64,000 nt of DNA from an uncultured cyanobacterium (GCA_963744145.1 CAVUSO010000001.1:5408001-5472000), one strand, 5' to 3'. Positions 3,530-38,796 are shown, counted from the stretch's first letter. The notes: a model not told the origin generated them from the sequence alone. Translations and numbers: made by a program.

Positions 3530-5329
3530 ATGACAGAAGCAACCAAAATTCGCCCTAGTAGTAGCTTAAGCACTAAACCAACCATATCCTACCAGGTTGC
3601 CATGCCTGAGCCGGAAACTCATCTCTTTGCAGTAACTTTACAAGTTCACAACTTTCAAGCACCAATTCTGGATCTAAAAATGCCAGTTTGGACTCCAGGA
3701 TCATATTTAGTTCGGGAGTATGCTAAACATCTTCAAGATTTTTCGGCTCAAAATCATGAGAATAAATCTCTACCTTGGCAAAAAGTAAGTAAAAATCATT
3801 GGCAAATTCAAACTCAGGGAAATGCTAAGGTCGTCGTGCGTTATCGGATTTTTGCCAATGAGCTAACTGTCCGAACTAACCATCTCGATTCTACCCACGG
3901 TTATTTTAATGGTTCTGCACTATTTTTTGATATTCCAGGGTTAGAAAAAAATCCGATCCAGATCAAAATAGTCCCACCACAACCAGGGTGGCGAGTGACT
4001 ACACCATTGTCAAGTCTGGGAGAAGCAAATACTTTCTTTGCTCCCGATTTTGATACCCTAGTAGATAGTCCCTTTGAGATTGGTAAACATAATTTATATA
4101 ACTTTGAAGTGTTGGGTAAACCCCACGAATTGGTGATTTGGGGACAGGGAAATCTTGAACCTAAACGCGCGATCGCTGATATCCAGAAAATTATTCAGGT
4201 AGAATCCGAAATGTTTGGCGGTTTACCCTATAATCGCTATGTATTTCTCCTCCATTTATCTGCTCAAGGATATGGTGGACTGGAACATAAAGACTCCTGT
4301 ACTTTAAATTATCCTCGGTTTGGATTTCGAGCCAAAGATCAGTATGAGCGGTTTATGCAACTGGTAGCGCATGAATTTTTTCACCTCTGGAATGTGAAGA
4401 GAATTCGACCGAAAGAGTTAGAAGTATTTAATTATAACGGCGAAAATTATACTACTTCTCTGTGGTTTTGTGAAGGCACAACGAGTTATTATGACTTGGT
4501 GTTTCCCTTACGAGCTGGAATTTATGATGGGAAAACGTTTTTCAATTTGTTAAGCAAAGAAATAACTCGATTGCAAACTACACCTGGTCGATTAGTTCAA
4601 CCATTAAGCGAATCTAGTTGGGATACATGGATTAAACTATATCGACCTGATGCTAATAGTAATAATTCCCAGATATCCTACTATTTGAAAGGGGAATTGG
4701 TGTCGGTATTGTTAGATTTGTTGATTCGTTACCGACAGGAAAATCAGCGATCGCTAGATCAGGTAATGCAAAAAATGTGGCAGGAATTTGGTCAAACGGA
4801 AAGAGGTTTTACTCCCACCCAATTACAAAATGCGATCGAGTCAGTCGCAGGGATAAATTTAGATGATTTTTTTGCTCGCTATATTCATGGTACAGAAGAA
4901 TTACCCTTTAACGAATACCTGGAACCCTACGGATTGCAACTAGAACAAGATCATCCCAGTGAACTAGCACCATATTTAGGGATAAATGTCAAGACTGAAA
5001 ACGGACGAGAAATAATTAAATTTGTCGAATCTGGTTCACCTGCTCAACGAGCGGGAATTGACCCAGGTGATGAATTGTTAGCGATAAATGGGATACGGGT
5101 CAGTGCAGAAAACCTCAGCGATCGACTCAAAGACTATCAATCCGGAGATCAGATTAAAATAGCGTTATTCCATCAAGATGAACTCCGTCACTATCACGTT
5201 ACCTTAACTACTTCAAGCCCAAAAACCTGGAAAATTGTCCCAGTTACCCAGCCCAACCCAACCCAAAAAACCCGCTTTCTGGGGTGGTTAGGGACACCTT
5301 TAACCAAAGTATTTAACTTGGAAATTTGA
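3530..5329 (+). CDS. M61 family metallopeptidase (glycyl aminopeptidase) with PDZ domain
   Basis: MPVWTPGSY, GGLEH, HEFFH zinc motif and a C-terminal PDZ (SPAQRAGI..GDELLAING). Confidence 0.92.
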   Translation: MTEATKIRPSSSLSTKPTISYQVAMPEPETHLFAVTLQVHNFQAPILDLKMPVWTPGSYLVREYAKHLQDFSAQNHENKSLPWQKVSKNHWQIQTQGNAKVVVRYRIFANELTVRTNHLDSTHGYFNGSALFFDIPGLEKNPIQIKIVPPQPGWRVTTPLSSLGEANTFFAPDFDTLVDSPFEIGKHNLYNFEVLGKPHELVIWGQGNLEPKRAIADIQKIIQVESEMFGGLPYNRYVFLLHLSAQGYGGLEHKDSCTLNYPRFGFRAKDQYERFMQLVAHEFFHLWNVKRIRPKELEVFNYNGENYTTSLWFCEGTTSYYDLVFPLRAGIYDGKTFFNLLSKEITRLQTTPGRLVQPLSESSWDTWIKLYRPDANSNNSQISYYLKGELVSVLLDLLIRYRQENQRSLDQVMQKMWQEFGQTERGFTPTQLQNAIESVAGINLDDFFARYIHGTEELPFNEYLEPYGLQLEQDHPSELAPYLGINVKTENGREIIKFVESGSPAQRAGIDPGDELLAINGIRVSAENLSDRLKDYQSGDQIKIALFHQDELRHYHVTLTTSSPKTWKIVPVTQPNPTQKTRFLGWLGTPLTKVFNLEI

Positions 5330-33229: not shown

Positions 33230-33690
33230 TAGGGCAAAGCATTGAGGTCATAGATATCTCGAAGAACCCGATCACTGATCTGCCTCAATGCTTTGCCCCT
33301 ACAAATCCGGACAAAATTTTGTTAATGTTTTCTTGAGATTCACAAAACCATTCCAAAATCTGGCGATCGCAACGAAACTATCCCAAAATCTGGCGATCGA
33401 TATCTCCCTCAAAATCTAGCGATCGCGCAACCCCTCGTAGGGGCGAAGCATTCGGGCGATAATTAATCACTTAAACCGATAATATTATACCCGAATGCTT
33501 CGCCCTTCTTCTGGCGATATCTCCCAAAAAACTTAACTGAATGGTATTTTTATATAGTTGACTGAATGGTATTTTTATATAGTTGATCTGCTGGCTGCAT
33601 AGATGGTGAGGGCAAAGCATTTCGGTAATACTATTCTTCGTTTAAGCAATCACTTATTCGCCGAAATGCTTTGCCCCTACGGGTAACTAA
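33230..33690. repeat. REP/REPIN cluster (three long hairpins with GTAGGGGC/GCCCCTAC-type ends)
   Basis: Hairpins at 33230-33303, 33437-33506 and 33609-33680. Region 33437-33690 is duplicated at 37087-37312. Confidence 0.85.
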
Positions 33691-33726: not shown

Positions 33727-35511
33727 TCAATCCAAATCTATTTTGGCAAAGTGGTCTTGCAAATACTTATGTATAAAGCGATAGCGACCACCAATACGTT
33801 GCAATAAAAGACGTTCGGTGCAGTAGTTGAGCAGAAGATCATAGCGCAAGGGCACATAGTGATTCCAGGCAAGGATAAAACGCAGAGCAATGTGTTGTAT
33901 TAATGCTTGCCCACCACCTGCCTGAAAACATAAAAAAATTAAAATAGCTATAGAAGTCGCAATTAATATAGGGATAACTTGAGGATTAACGATACTGATA
34001 TTCGTGAGTATATGTTCTAAGAGGACCTTAAGGGGTATTGCTAACACCACGGCAATTAGAGTTAATACTACCATATTTTTCAGTGAGTTTTTGATGCCCT
34101 GATTAGGCTCAATCCTAGTTTGGATATCAGTTTTTAGCCCATGAATCAGCCCATGAATCAGCCCAAGAACCAGCCCAAAACCCAGCCCAAAACCCAGCCC
34201 AAAACTCAGCCCAAAACCCAGCCCATGAATCAGCCCAAGAACCAGCCCAAAACCCAGCCCAAAACTCAGCCCAAAACCCAGCCCGTAAGCAAGTGATCGT
34301 AAAATTTCTCGTCCTACTTTGTAGGACATTGAAATTGAAATTACTTCTACTGGCTCAATTTTCCCACCAACCAGACCACCAGCCAGCCCACCAGCCAGCC
34401 CAATAACCAGCCCAATAACCAGCCCAATAACCAGCAAACCAACCAGCAGACCAACCAGCCCAATAACCAGCCCAACAACGAGTTTATATGCCAATTTTTG
34501 CCGCCGAATAATAAGTTCGGTTGGCTGCATTTTTTCGATTAATAATTCCGTGCTAGATTCGCGAGAAAGCATCTTAGCGGTAAAAATAAGCGATCGCTTG
34601 ACTTGTTTATTTGATGGCAGTAACTTAGTACCATAAGTTTTGCTGCGAACACCTCGCCTTTTTTCATTAGGGTCAATAATCAATTCACGAGTAATAGTTG
34701 TTTCCCAATAAGTATTGAGCAAATATTCAATTCTTGTCTCGGAATCAATACGCGATCGCCAAGATTCAAGAGAAAACTTTCCTTGTGTCTGCACCAAACC
34801 AAACATAGATAAAAACAGAGGCGTTTTCAGCATCGCCTGCAAAGCTTCATCTTGCTGCACCGTTTGCCATACATCCTGCAACTGAAACTGAGTAAAATAT
34901 TCTTTAATTTGCTCAATAGTTAATGCTTGCAAATAAATCGCCCCATACAGATTCAGACGCTGCCGCACCGCATTCTCAAACTCTTCTCGCCGACAACAAA
35001 CTAACACACCGCAAGGTTGCTGCTCAATATCCCCCGTCAACCAAATATTAAGCATTTTTGCACAATCTTCTTGATACTGGGTTGCTACCTCATCCAACCC
35101 ATCCAGCATAGGTAAAAGTTGATTTTCCTTTAGCCATTGCTTTGCCAAATCCTGACCAATCCCATATTTTTCCTTCAACTCACCCAACAACCACTCATAA
35201 ATTGATTGCTGCGGATCTTTCCAAGAGGACAAACTAAGTAAAACTGGGATTGGCTCGATTTTATCTTTTATCGCTCTTTGCAACAAATCCTGTGCCAATT
35301 CCAGCATCATCGTAGTTTTACCAGAACCTGGTTCACCCAGAATTAGCAATTTACGCTCAATTTCTGGGCGATCGAATACCTCTACAATTCGAGTTCCAGC
35401 ATCCAAGGGTACTGCTAACTGGGATGCTTGCGCGATCGTTGCTGACCAAGGACGTTGGATGCGATAGTCTTGCTGTTCCATTCCCAGAATCAGCCATACT
35501 GCATTGTGCAA
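33727..35511 (-). CDS. NACHT NTPase with C-terminal GLxxGL transmembrane repeats; frame stays open upstream to 35706 with no ATG
   Basis: GEPGSGKT, LDGLDE, LLQRIGGRYRFIH and Gly/Leu-rich TM repeats. Confidence 0.88.
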   Translation of the reverse strand: MHNAVWLILGMEQQDYRIQRPWSATIAQASQLAVPLDAGTRIVEVFDRPEIERKLLILGEPGSGKTTMMLELAQDLLQRAIKDKIEPIPVLLSLSSWKDPQQSIYEWLLGELKEKYGIGQDLAKQWLKENQLLPMLDGLDEVATQYQEDCAKMLNIWLTGDIEQQPCGVLVCCRREEFENAVRQRLNLYGAIYLQALTIEQIKEYFTQFQLQDVWQTVQQDEALQAMLKTPLFLSMFGLVQTQGKFSLESWRSRIDSETRIEYLLNTYWETTITRELIIDPNEKRRGVRSKTYGTKLLPSNKQVKRSLIFTAKMLSRESSTELLIEKMQPTELIIRRQKLAYKLVVGLVIGLVGLLVGLLVIGLVIGLVIGLAGGLAGGLVGGKIEPVEVISISMSYKVGREILRSLAYGLGFGLSFGLGFGLVLGLIHGLGFGLSFGLGFGLGFGLVLGLIHGLIHGLKTDIQTRIEPNQGIKNSLKNMVVLTLIAVVLAIPLKVLLEHILTNISIVNPQVIPILIATSIAILIFLCFQAGGGQALIQHIALRFILAWNHYVPLRYDLLLNYCTERLLLQRIGGRYRFIHKYLQDHFAKIDLD

Positions 35512-35541
35512 CGACTGTGATAACCGCTCCTTTATCTCTGT

Positions 35542-35667
35542 TTTTACTGTTAGTAACAGTTTTTCTTGGGATGGTTCTCGTTTAGCTTTTAGTGGTTTTG
35601 GATCTTTTACTGTTAGTAACAGTTTTTCTTGGGATGGTTCTCGTTTAGCTTTTAGTGGTTTTGGATC
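35542..35667 (-). repeat. In-frame 63-bp tandem duplication (DPKPLKAKREPSQEKLLLTVK x2)
   Basis: ttttactgttagtaacagtttttcttgggatggttctcgtttagcttttagtggttttggatc occurs twice. Confidence 0.9.
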
Positions 35668-35684
35668 AGGTTGAGAATTGCAGG

Positions 35685-36176
35685 TTAAGACTTTTTTGCT
35701 AGTGCCTTAGACCACTTTATAAAAGTTGGGAAATGCGATCGCAAAAAGTTCTCTGTGTCCAGCTCTGCTTCATAGGACACATTAACAAACGGTGGTAGTA
35801 GAGACAGTGCCCCCTTTAACTTAGCAGCCGCAGGTGTTTCCGGTTTACTCACTTCAGCATAAATTTTCTGTAGCCATTCCAAGACTTCATCAGAATATTG
35901 CTGACTCGTTTGCAGTTGTCCCACTTGTTCTACAATCTCAGCAACAACAACTTCTGGTGCTGGATCTAGTATCGTGGTTGTCGCGGGTTCATCCGCCAAA
36001 ATTTGCCAATATTCTCTTTCAAACGGTTGCATCTCTTTTTTCAAATCCTTAATCTGCTGCTTAATCCGAGCCCGTTCTTCGGGAGCAATCGTTATTAATG
36101 TATCTTCTTTTCCTGCCAATTGGTCACGCAAACGGGTCAAATTTCTTTCAAGTTGGCGCAAGCGATCGCTGGACAT
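35685..36176 (-). CDS. Hypothetical helical protein; possible N-terminal part of a frameshift fusion with the NACHT ORF
   Basis: 163 aa, ending GCA AAA AAG TCT TAA. Confidence 0.75.
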   Translation of the reverse strand: MSSDRLRQLERNLTRLRDQLAGKEDTLITIAPEERARIKQQIKDLKKEMQPFEREYWQILADEPATTTILDPAPEVVVAEIVEQVGQLQTSQQYSDEVLEWLQKIYAEVSKPETPAAAKLKGALSLLPPFVNVSYEAELDTENFLRSHFPTFIKWSKALAKKS

Positions 36177-36344
36177 CTATCCACTCCAAAAGTTTTTAAA
36201 CCACTATATTCGGTTTTACTCCATCAATACCACTAGGCGGAAGCAAGCTACGCTTTTGACAGATCAGAATTTTCTCTCTTATCCTTAGTTAGTAAACGAC
36301 AATACAGTCAAGTTTAACTAGAAATAGAAATCTAGAAAAAAACC

Positions 36345-36938
36345 ATGTCTACCTTAATTCAAAACTTAACTGAAAACCCACCAGAGAAAAAAAATTGGAC
36401 TGATGACGAATTCATGACCCTGAGTCGAGATGGACATCGCTACGAAATTGTCAATGGCAAACTAATGGATATGGGAAACTCTGGCGCAAAACACGGTTAT
36501 ATTGCCATTATTTTAAGTGCTGCTTTGTTTAATTTTGTATCAACCAGAAAATTAGGAGTCTTGCTGGACTCTAGCACTGCATTTAAGATGAAATCAGGAA
36601 ATAAGCGATCGCCCGATATTTCCTTTGTGGATAAAAAACATTTACAAGGAATAGACGATCTCCCCAATGATTTTCTCGAAGGTGCCCCTGATCTGGCGAT
36701 AGAAATCCTGTCTCCTAGCAATACAGTGGCAGAAATACATGACAAACTGGTGGAATATTTTGAGAATGGGGCACGTTTAGTGTGGGTAATCCATCCTCAA
36801 GAACATTATGTTTTGGTTTATCGTTCTAGATTGGGACCCGATCGTCTGCTCAAGTCTACCGACTCCCTCAATGGTGAAGAAGTAATCCCTGATTTCACTT
36901 TCCCGATCGCGGATCTGTTTCAAAAACTCGCTTTTTAA
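36345..36938 (+). CDS. Uma2 family endonuclease-like protein
   Basis: RYEIVNG, RSPDISF, APDLAIEILSP. Confidence 0.9.
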   Translation: MSTLIQNLTENPPEKKNWTDDEFMTLSRDGHRYEIVNGKLMDMGNSGAKHGYIAIILSAALFNFVSTRKLGVLLDSSTAFKMKSGNKRSPDISFVDKKHLQGIDDLPNDFLEGAPDLAIEILSPSNTVAEIHDKLVEYFENGARLVWVIHPQEHYVLVYRSRLGPDRLLKSTDSLNGEEVIPDFTFPIADLFQKLAF

Positions 36939-37636: not shown

Positions 37637-37849
37637 ATGGTTCAACGCGGTTCTAAGGTTCGGATTCTCCGTAAAGAATCTTACTGGTTTCAGGATCTCG
37701 GTGTAGTTGCTTCTGTGGACCAAAGCGGGATCAAATATCCTGTGATTGTTCGTTTTGACAAGGTTAACTACTCTGGGATCAATACTAACAACTTTGCTGC
37801 CAGTGAATTGGTAGAAGTTGAAGCCCCAAAAGCCAAAGCCAAAAAGTAA
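37637..37849 (+). CDS. psaE: Photosystem I subunit IV
   Basis: [20 protein letters not shown]...[12 protein letters not shown]. Confidence 0.97.
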
Positions 37850-37938: not shown

Positions 37939-38796
37939 GTGCCAGAACTACCTGAAGTTGAAACGGTAAAACGGGGTTTAAATCAAAAAACCCTGATGCA
38001 AAAAATAGTGGGTGGGGAAGTGGTGCTTGATCGGACCATTGCTCACCCTCTTTCTTGTGCAGATTTTCTAGCTGGTGTGACTGGGACAGCGATCGCGAAG
38101 TGGTACAGAAAAGGAAAATATTTGCTAGCTGAACTTACTCAACTAGAAGGTGAATCACCCAGATCAGCAGGTTGGTTAGGTGTTCATCTCCGGATGACAG
38201 GACAACTGTTGTGGTTAGAGCAAGATACACCATTACAAAAACATACTCGTTTACGGCTATTTTTTGGCGATCGCCAGGAATTGCGTTTTGTCGATCAGCG
38301 GACCTTTGGTAAAGTCTGGTGGGTGTCCCCAGGAGTTGAACCAGCAAGTATTATTACTGGGTTAGGACACTTAGGACCAGAACCATTTACGCCAGAATTT
38401 TCCCTTCTATACTTAGTTAATAAACTCCAACGTAGTCAACGTGCGATTAAAACAGCCATACTTGATCAATCTCTAGTTGCAGGTGTGGGTAATATTTATG
38501 CTGATGAAGCACTATTTGTGAGTAGGATTCGACCGGAAACTAATTGCACCAAGTTAACGACCGAGCAGATTTCTCGTTTGCGATCGGCCATAATTGAGGT
38601 GTTACAAGCAGGGATTGATTCTGGTGGTACTACATTTAGTAACTTTCTCAATATCCATGGGGTAAATGGTAATTATGCCGGAATCGCTTGGGTGTATAAT
38701 CGGGCTGGACAACCTTGTCGTAACTGTAGTACCCCGATCGAAAGATTAAAATTAGCTGGTATATTTAGTCATTTCTGTCCAAAATGCCAACATTAA
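37939..38796 (+). CDS. mutM: Formamidopyrimidine-DNA glycosylase
   Basis: MPELPEVE, HLRMTG, GVGNIYADE and a C-terminal zinc finger. Confidence 0.95.
   Translation: MPELPEVETVKRGLNQKTLMQKIVGGEVVLDRTIAHPLSCADFLAGVTGTAIAKWYRKGKYLLAELTQLEGESPRSAGWLGVHLRMTGQLLWLEQDTPLQKHTRLRLFFGDRQELRFVDQRTFGKVWWVSPGVEPASIITGLGHLGPEPFTPEFSLLYLVNKLQRSQRAIKTAILDQSLVAGVGNIYADEALFVSRIRPETNCTKLTTEQISRLRSAIIEVLQAGIDSGGTTFSNFLNIHGVNGNYAGIAWVYNRAGQPCRNCSTPIERLKLAGIFSHFCPKCQH

Follow-up and report, generated by a model that had tools for sequence, protein, structure and literature searches.

Can a single bacterial gene supply both a free adaptor protein and a sensor that carries the same adaptor, by letting some ribosomes change reading frame? 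This question is raised by a locus on the minus strand of a 64,000-nucleotide stretch of DNA from an uncultured cyanobacterium (GCA_963744145.1, CAVUSO010000001.1:5408001-5472000; hereafter the window), where a 163-amino-acid open reading frame (ORF) ends in the heptamer A_AAA_AAG and a stop codon, and the -1 frame runs on into a NACHT nucleoside triphosphatase (NTPase) with transmembrane (TM) segments. Comparison with homologous loci indicates that recoding in the -1 direction is probably programmed at this heptamer, and that it most likely works by dnaX/IS3-type ribosomal frameshifting. Several features that mark such sites were found together here, namely an in-phase heptamer, an early 0-frame stop with a long, start-less -1 ORF, and conservation beyond the needs of the protein.

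The first-pass annotation of the window, made from its sequence alone, had read the end of the small ORF as GCA AAA AAG TCT TAA on the minus strand, with the heptamer at 35697-35691. This proved correct, and the phase is that of an X_XXY_YYZ site, the heptamer beginning on the last base of GCA. The -1 frame, said to be open into the NACHT ORF and closed near 35707, is indeed shut by a TAA at 35709-35707 and then remains open for 659 codons up to a stop at 33729-33727. Its first start-like codon is the TTG at 35511, 62 codons past the heptamer, and its first ATG is codon 72, in agreement with the claim that no ATG precedes the TTG. Tandem slippage was computed to yield a product of 162 + 654 = 816 amino acids, the length previously proposed for the fusion. 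NACHT (PF05729) is matched in the -1 ORF with E 3.8e-12 and 46.8 bits against a cut-off of 26.7 (Pfam), the interval separating the ORFs showed no promoter-like or terminator-like site on that strand, and the small ORF, which we refer to as the adaptor module, is present as a single copy in its own genome. The features of the locus are as follows.

35685..36176, minus strand: adaptor-module ORF of 163 amino acids with an ATG start, the predicted short product of the 0 frame.
35691..35697, minus strand: slippery heptamer A_AAA_AAG within GCA AAA AAG.
35685..35687, minus strand: 0-frame stop TAA, 3 nucleotides (nt) past the heptamer, where non-shifting ribosomes would terminate.
35705..35709, minus strand: TAAGG, whose TAA shuts the -1 frame 3 codons 5' of the heptamer.
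33727..35706, minus strand: -1-frame ORF of 659 codons plus stop, comprising a linker, the NACHT NTPase, multiple TM segments and a conserved C-terminal motif.
34885..35349, minus strand: NACHT domain (Pfam), residues 120-274 of the -1 ORF, with a visible GEPGSGKT P-loop.
33943..34500, minus strand: six hydrophobic TM-like segments (hydropathy scan), partly built from Gly/Leu repeats with a 12-nt period.
35509..35511, minus strand: TTG, earliest start-like codon in the -1 frame and a possible independent internal start.
35542..35667, minus strand: perfect 63-nt (21-codon) tandem duplication in the -1-frame linker, which keeps the frame.

Homologous loci were collected from 61 relatives (11 of the 61 genomes matched, its own included), from a species-representative collection (12 loci) and from a profile search of 401 genomes of the phylum, 37 of which matched at E <= 1e-5. 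After a 46-residue partial match (L011) and 23 weaker or partial matches from the 401-genome search had been left out, 45 loci were analysed, corresponding to 43 distinct ones (L026 is identical to L016, and L037 to L023). They span at least ten coded GTDB families, with named records from Coleofasciculus, Symploca, Argonema, Caldora, Lyngbya and Pantanalinema and one labelled Sericytochromatia. A heptamer was scored when A_AAA_AA[G/A] lay in phase within the last 20 codons of the module ORF. The script found it in 33 of the 43 distinct loci; L030, mis-scored owing to an internal TAA in its module, reads GCA AAA AAG TCC TAG by eye and brings the count to 34.

Possession of the heptamer goes along with possession of a downstream partner. 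Thirty of the 34 heptamer-bearing loci have a long -1 ORF, running from 189 to more than 1166 codons past the 0-frame stop (many of these lengths are lower bounds, the frame still being open where the locus sequence ends), and none of the nine loci lacking the heptamer has a -1 ORF of 100 codons, the longest reaching 88. In the +1 frame, at least 100 codons follow the stop in just two of the 45 rows (L007 and L009). The geometry of the site is equally constrained: among the 33 scored loci, the 0-frame stop comes 0-3 nt after the heptamer in 29, and the -1 frame opens 0-3 codons 5' of it in 25. The heptamer, the adjacent stop and the -1 phase are thus kept despite synonymous and non-synonymous change and with at least seven families of partner, the pattern for which the first-pass annotation had asked that homologues be aligned.

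The codon that precedes the two lysines shows what is being conserved. It is GCA in 22 of the 33 loci, AAA in three, GAA and CAA in two each, and GGA, CCA, GTA or CTA in the others, so that eight amino acids are encoded and the third base is A in every case. Because the amino acid varies and the third base does not, the alignment indicates that selection at the site acts on nucleotides rather than on residues. The lysines themselves are spelled AAA-AAG in 30 of the 33; over the remainder of these ORFs, GCA accounts for 174 of 560 Ala codons and AAA for 239 of 475 Lys codons. Partner-less loci display degraded sites, namely GCG AAA AAG in L004, GGA AAA AAC in L040 and GCA AAA AAC in L021. In the last of these (JBFLZA010000064.1, locus ~3970-4183), the -1 partner is cut to 71 codons that match the extreme C-terminus of the NACHT-TM protein alone.

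By Pfam class, the 30 long -1 ORFs comprise 12 NB-ARC+TPR, eight NACHT, two nSTAND4, two AAA_16/nSTAND5, two VMAP-C, one nSTAND1 and one AAA_35 protein, and two without a match, which suggests that at least seven families of downstream partner have been combined with the same signal. Even close relatives of the module can differ in this respect: L013, whose module is 85% identical, is followed by an unknown 222-amino-acid protein, and L018 (77%) by an NB-ARC-TPR protein. Where two loci differ in partner, their DNA stays similar as far as about +45-60 nt beyond the heptamer, after which similarity sinks to background level; what travels with the module rather than with the partner is therefore the heptamer together with its stop and the ensuing segment. 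Judged from these sequences, the -1 partners appear to have no start of their own. Their first ATG, GTG or TTG lies 13-195 codons past the heptamer, and in several loci it falls inside or past the conserved domain (L006, 195 codons; L027, 185; L029, 114, with NB-ARC beginning at residue 44; L043, 42, with the domain beginning at 28). L008 has a TTG at 13, yet position 1 of the nSTAND1 profile aligns at residue 10 of its -1 ORF. A few relatives encode in-frame counterparts, module-nSTAND1 in P0047, module-nSTAND4 in P0019 and module-AAA_16 in P0121, so the trans-frame product has a natural counterpart. L034 is a three-part case, with an HTH-like region, TRADD-N and the module in the 0 frame and NB-ARC-TPR in the -1 frame.

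The reading frame across the junction also evolves as protein. In the eight loci of the NACHT group, pairwise differences at the three codon positions amount to 145/136/288 over the 24 codons 5' of the TTG and to 300/250/714 on its 3' side, the latter figures indicating that the NACHT -1 ORFs are under purifying selection. Those 24 codons encode a conserved peptide and contain no conserved start, which bears out the earlier impression that the codons ahead of the TTG look like real protein. Since the stretch from heptamer to TTG evolves as coding sequence, initiation at the TTG alone is insufficient. Seven NB-ARC loci of one genus behave similarly, with 18/24/90 over the 41 codons from the heptamer to the first ATG versus 30/30/99 after it; a conserved FVGR motif sits 5' of this ATG, and more distant NB-ARC loci have Leu, not Met, at its column. 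Independent initiation of the NACHT protein, which the first-pass annotation had named as an outcome that would undo the frameshift, is accordingly not the whole story, given the coding stretch 5' of the TTG, and the TTG may give rise to an extra product.

Such an arrangement is rare in the genome. Its 7.7 Mb contain 10,040 AAAAAA[A/G] sites on both strands, of which nine show the geometry of a 0-frame ORF of at least 80 codons with a stop within 15 codons and a -1 frame that opens at most 30 codons upstream and runs for at least 150 codons; the arrangement is therefore beyond chance. Two of the other eight sites are ATGA stop/start overlaps, as judged by flanking sequence. Six of the eight, once translated, look like adjacent genes or a broken Hsp70-like gene, none resembling an adaptor-STAND pair. 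At L053 in this genome (G000:C1 ~999,438), conserved segments of an Hsp70/DnaK-like gene, ...RIPAV and ...AVKKIFGKEP..., stand in different frames near an A7 run, which makes it a candidate for either a frame break or further recoding.

Metagenomic data cover the site as well. A soil-metagenome contig of 1460 nt (X1 record 5) spans 35638-36250 with 0 differences and 0 gaps and keeps the A6 run; it may derive from the window's own source sample. A sequencing error or a recent mutation was rejected as the origin of the arrangement, which is kept in 30 loci and in this matching contig. Another metagenome contig, of 514 nt (X1 record 6), matches just 35692-35741, the last 50 nt of the module's 3' end, with 3 differences; the match breaks off precisely where the heptamer lies, the flanks on either side are unrelated, and the contig probably represents another organism's module joined to a different partner.

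For sites of the dnaX/IS3 type, a stimulatory stem-loop or pseudoknot is looked for some 5-9 nt on the 3' side, and most relatives can form a hairpin starting 4-7 nt past the heptamer, with lineage-specific sequences. The types include a CCC...GGG clamp with variable inner stems in cassettes of the Coleofasciculaceae type, a stem of 7 bp (ACCTGGA/TCCAGGT) in the genus with NB-ARC partners, a stem of ~16 bp in L003, and other hairpins in L005, L008, L043 and L046. The 45-nt window past the site folds to a mean of -11.0 kcal/mol versus -7.9 for internal controls (eight windows per locus); 21 of 30 relatives have an energy of -10 kcal/mol or lower there, and the window beats the controls in 23 of 30 loci, with a Wilcoxon p of 9e-4 that is overstated, as the loci are kin. 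The inner stems are lineage-specific and resist alignment. At the family level, a 3' hairpin is suggested by these predicted folds. On the 5' side, many loci have TAAGG at a distance of 7 nt from the heptamer; the pentamer matches the 5' part of the Shine-Dalgarno complement; it is a possible Shine-Dalgarno-like upstream stimulator, confounded with coding and with the -1-frame stop, as the same letters encode Lys and a G-initial codon and supply that stop.

Several observations weigh against a programmed frameshift, or at least against a simple version of it. Four loci have the heptamer with no long -1 ORF: L023 (11 codons), L030 (~12, the contig ending 79 nt further on), L038 (6) and L049 (31). 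The loci are kin, many of them from one genus (g33), and their counts are not independent events. The window's own locus has no 3' hairpin, the 45 nt past its heptamer folding to 0.0 kcal/mol as anticipated by the first-pass annotation, which had seen no strong downstream structure, and both halves of the CCC...GGG clamp are mutated there. RNAalifold on 13 relatives returned just three invariant C-G pairs and 0 compensatory changes, so covariation lends the hairpin no proof. The first 15 codons past the heptamer show no third-position excess in the NACHT group (161/132/122), and the TTG at 35511 is invariant in 8/8 NACHT-type orthologues, where other Leu columns vary; this conserved TTG may additionally yield an independent, module-less NACHT isoform. 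The two codons that precede it (CAG TCG/TCT) are also invariant or nearly so in the same 8/8 orthologues. Finally, the genome encodes tRNA-Lys(CUU) besides two tRNA-Lys(UUU), and G054, which carries an orthologous locus, likewise has tRNA-Lys(CUU); a passage of Atkins et al. 2016 (PMC5009743) attributes the shiftiness of AAG in E. coli to the presence of just one tRNA-Lys. The idea that tRNA-Lys(CUU) predicts the type of site was discarded, since six genomes gave no clear pattern: it was found in G000, G054 and G007 and, with this query, not in G014, G011 and G107. ARAGORN further calls a tRNA-like gene at G000:C1:3136396-3136470, whose anticodon loop has 8 nt (four-base 'tcta') and whose acceptor stem pairs poorly; this is probably a pseudo-tRNA or a false call.

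The invariant TTG and the missing hairpin are what one would cite for two separate, independently translated genes, in which the NACHT protein starts at TTG 35511 or at the ATG ten codons on, the open -1 frame ahead of that start is untranslated and AAAAAAG does no more than encode a conserved Ala-Lys-Lys tail. The Pfam match to NACHT starts well past the TTG, at residue 120, partner-less proteins do end in a true C-terminal ...KK (L004, L038; P0001, P0021, P0023), and KK plus at most two residues terminates 57 of 130 representatives. A lysine tail, however, does not account for a preceding codon that varies in amino acid and never in third base, or for the association of the heptamer with a long -1 ORF (30/34 vs 0/9); nor does a start at the TTG explain the coding signature and conserved peptide ahead of it, which hold no conserved start, and in other classes the first possible start falls inside or past the conserved domain (L006, L027 and L029, as well as L008 and L043). 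Two separate genes are for these reasons quite improbable. A broken gene, be it a 1-nt deletion in the A run of an ancestral in-frame module-NACHT gene or an assembly error in the homopolymer, would fit the lost hairpin clamp and recent duplication at the window's own locus, and decayed relatives do exist, such as L021 with its partner remnant and no heptamer, or L030 with its internal TAA. Yet 30 loci, from many independent assemblies, repeat the -1 arrangement and its stop 0-3 nt on, and the -1 ORFs stay open over hundreds of codons under purifying selection. The 63-nt duplication keeps the frame, the metagenome contig reproduces A6, and no orthologue was found with an A7 run and a continuous ORF, the sign of error proposed beforehand; the seven other NACHT-type loci keep A6G, one codon and a stop. 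We therefore consider a broken gene or an assembly error very improbable indeed.

Recoding might also be non-ribosomal, through RNA polymerase slippage that adds one A to some of the transcripts or through phase variation by replication slippage (A6 to A7), which would turn the fusion on in part of a population. A run of six A is not known to allow efficient polymerase slippage. Longer runs, on which transcriptional or replication slippage is known to work efficiently, do occur in the family, A9G in L005, A10 in L006 and A9 in L027, and the partner of L006 is fused in frame in a relative, P0019. The tRNA-Lys(CUU) of the genome may be counted on the same side, as a passage of Atkins et al. 2016 (PMC5009743) links two tRNA-Lys species to Thermus polymerase slippage at dnaX. 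Against this, exactly A6 followed by G is found in 27 of the 30 partner-bearing loci, and if run length were what mattered, the G should be unconserved and longer runs favoured. The window's own A6G falls short of the homopolymers (~8-9 or more A/T) looked for in transcriptional slippage, for which a passage of PMC3711429 gives a threshold of 'An, n > 7'. In-frame 'on' alleles are rare: N-terminal fusions make up 9 of 139 full-module representatives among the best 150 of 361 matches in a search of representative proteins, and 0/8 NACHT and 0/12 NB-ARC loci are in frame. The covering metagenome contig has no indel, a weak point, as contigs drop rare variants. At the A9-A10 loci, slippage thus has to be taken seriously as an alternative; it carries less weight at the 27 A6G loci, and for the window's own site we regard it as unlikely. 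Programmed -1 ribosomal frameshifting is the reading we carry forward.

What does the module at the head of this gene do? The first-pass label of a small protein was right, and it can be made more precise: the domain appears to be an all-helical adaptor of the effector-associated domain (EAD) type, on the evidence of its predicted fold and of the proteins that carry it. In passages of Kaur et al. 2020 (PMC7159879), EADs are described as the same small helical domain occurring on effectors and on core NTPases, with a proposed homotypic coupling. This architecture is found here, with the module at the termini of effector or signalling proteins and on STAND and VMAP proteins, in the -1 frame or in frame. 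By sequence, EAD9 (PF19962) is matched below cut-off (E 3.8e-4, 20.6 bits versus 25), over residues 4-55 only, and 4 of 18 module family members match it at E <= 0.01. The best AlphaFold2 model (pLDDT, the predicted local distance difference test score, of 90.9; the other four range from 79.5 to 59.5) has eight helices, a long hairpin at residues 2-61 followed by six short helices at 74-162. With this model, Foldseek gave 0 matches at E <= 0.001 against PDB, and the wide VIA-align search gave none at Z >= 8, its top matches being generic helical hairpins, UPF0147, apolipophorin and Snf7/PspA with Z 6.3-7.7. A PDB sequence-profile search with the module gave nothing under E 0.026. No Death-fold match is listed in the structure searches, which does not exclude one.

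Among 25 longer proteins matched as carrying the module, ten were inspected. The module is C-terminal in eight, on SNF2/DEAD helicases, TIR, TRADD-N, EAD11 or unknown domains, and N-terminal in frame in two (P0004, P0019). A search of 1.84 billion representative proteins produced 361 module matches at E <= 0.001; the best 150 of them (hmmsearch) consist of 98 standalone modules, 11 fragments, 32 longer proteins with the module at their C-terminus and 9 with it fused in frame at the N-terminus. Partners in this last set include nSTAND1 (P0047), AAA_16 (P0121), TIR (P0099), TPR (P0062), a periplasmic binding domain (P0076) and GUN4 (P0092). In two genomes, a second copy of the module, reduced to its N-terminal hairpin, lies beside L010/L047 (G011:C1:2818934-2819131 and G138:C1:4156773-4156955); it starts a 389-codon open frame ~1.2 kb from the VMAP-linked module locus and represents the pattern of a 'second EAD copy in adjacent gene'.

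Under programmed frameshifting, the locus would work as follows. A single mRNA would carry the 163-amino-acid module ORF and the start-less -1-frame NACHT-TM ORF. The majority of ribosomes would decode GCA AAA AAG TCT, terminate, and release the free module (~18 kDa). A minority would shift by -1 on A_AAA_AAG, both tRNA-Lys re-pairing on AAA AAA, and go on with GTC... to make the 816-amino-acid module-NACHT-TM fusion. One gene would in this way yield both partners, an abundant free adaptor and a rarer adaptor-tagged sensor or switch. As the genome has one copy of the module, the 'second copy' of the EAD principle can only be the second isoform. If modules associate with one another, as we infer from the EAD analogy, the oligomerised NACHT domain of the rare long form might gather or nucleate the short form through module-module contacts, the ratio of adaptor to sensor would be set by frameshift efficiency, akin to an NLR nucleating its adaptor, and the presumed role of the system would be in conflict or defence.

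More tentatively, and with considerable doubt, the cassette of heptamer, stop and hairpin may be a portable part of the adaptor that makes of any downstream STAND or VMAP gene a two-isoform system of sensor plus adaptor pool, with frameshift efficiency as an input and the short isoform as a polymerising effector. If so, infection, by changing the supply or modification of tRNA-Lys or the state of the ribosome, could raise or lower the share of the adaptor-tagged NLR-like protein, translation stress could arm or trigger the system, and the short isoform would polymerise when nucleated by the rare long one. The resemblance of the module model to ESCRT-III/PspA-type proteins is weak and non-significant.

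Other observations concern the NACHT ORF and its surroundings. The 63-nt duplication at 35542-35667 (2.0 copies, 100% match) is missing from 7 orthologous NACHT loci and is therefore recent. Tandem arrays with a 12-nt period at 34136-34284 (~12 copies) and 34363-34479 (~10 copies) encode the Gly/Leu-rich tetrapeptide repeats that make up TM-like segments of the NACHT protein, and the TM regions of its orthologues (proteins of 630-753 amino acids) differ widely in sequence and length. A perfect 25-nt tandem repeat in two copies, at 33536-33586, lies shortly past the NACHT ORF stop on its 3' side. The plus-strand neighbours, read by eye, we take to be a 197-amino-acid protein (36345-36938), a PsaE-like ORF of 70 amino acids (37637-37849) and an Fpg/MutM-like ORF (37939-38796); by the same reading they look like housekeeping or common cyanobacterial genes, and the locus appears not to lie in any obvious defence island.

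How does this compare with known systems? E. coli dnaX and IS3 orfA-orfB share the identical heptamer in the same phase, a -1-frame ORF that follows without a start, a nearby stem-loop on the 3' side (predicted in most relatives of our locus) and, as predicted here, two products with a common N-terminus in a set ratio, and IS3 orfA also has its 0-frame stop just past the heptamer. In dnaX, however, the shifted product is the short one, whereas a long fusion arises here, as in IS3. The host, unlike E. coli, has tRNA-Lys(CUU), and the window's own locus lacks a hairpin; the cassette, moreover, sits on an adaptor domain with at least seven unrelated partner families rather than on transposases or replication proteins. 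The lambda tail chaperones G/GT and retroviral gag/gag-pol are ratio-setting -1 frameshifts. Their pattern of an abundant short and a rare extended product with a common N-terminal interaction module, in a stoichiometry set by frameshift efficiency, would be matched here, yet there is no homology, signalling or defence is presumed rather than virion assembly, and the ratio here is a predicted one. Lambda G/GT is mentioned in a passage of PMC5009743.

The EAD systems described in passages of Kaur et al. (PMC7159879, PMC8195603) resemble the present one in having a small, non-enzymatic, all-helical module on TIR, TRADD-N, SNF2 and EAD11 proteins that also occurs N-terminally on core STAND NTPases and VMAP, here with a weak EAD9 match. 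They differ in that the module is attached to the core NTPase by in-frame fusion or encoded in a neighbouring gene, rather than through a -1 frame change, and EAD9 itself has 62 profile positions versus ~160 amino acids, with a score below cut-off. The same authors draw the analogy with animal inflammasomes, in which a NACHT or NB-ARC switch with an N-terminal homotypic adaptor is likewise served by a separate adaptor pool; here, both pools would come from one gene, the module has no significant match to Death-fold or solved structures, and its self-association is presumed. In full-text literature searches, no paper was met in which frameshifting is tied to bacterial EAD, STAND or NACHT proteins, and those that pair 'effector-associated domain' with 'frameshift' mean phage mutants or phage tail chaperones. 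The words frameshift, recoding and slippage are absent from the main-text portions of Kaur et al. 2020/2021, whose supplements could list these proteins, and the module family does not appear in text passages and one supplement of the GeneTack survey (Antonov et al. 2013, PMC3711429).

In our view, the mechanism of recoding at this site is a known one, and what is new is its modular role. To our knowledge, bacterial chromosomal genes with an established -1 frameshift are few once mobile elements and phages are set aside, and the textbook case is dnaX. If our interpretation is true, 'orphan' start-less STAND genes and 160-amino-acid 'hypothetical proteins' would in dozens of cases turn out to be the two isoforms of a single gene, and such fusions would escape surveys of domain architecture in bacterial conflict and immune systems. 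The loci would also form a natural series of cassettes, with A6G and varied or no hairpins, with A9-A10 runs, and in hosts with or without tRNA-Lys(CUU), for the study of frameshifting outside E. coli. For prokaryotic NLR-like systems, frameshifting would provide a concrete, testable means of setting the ratio of adaptor to sensor.

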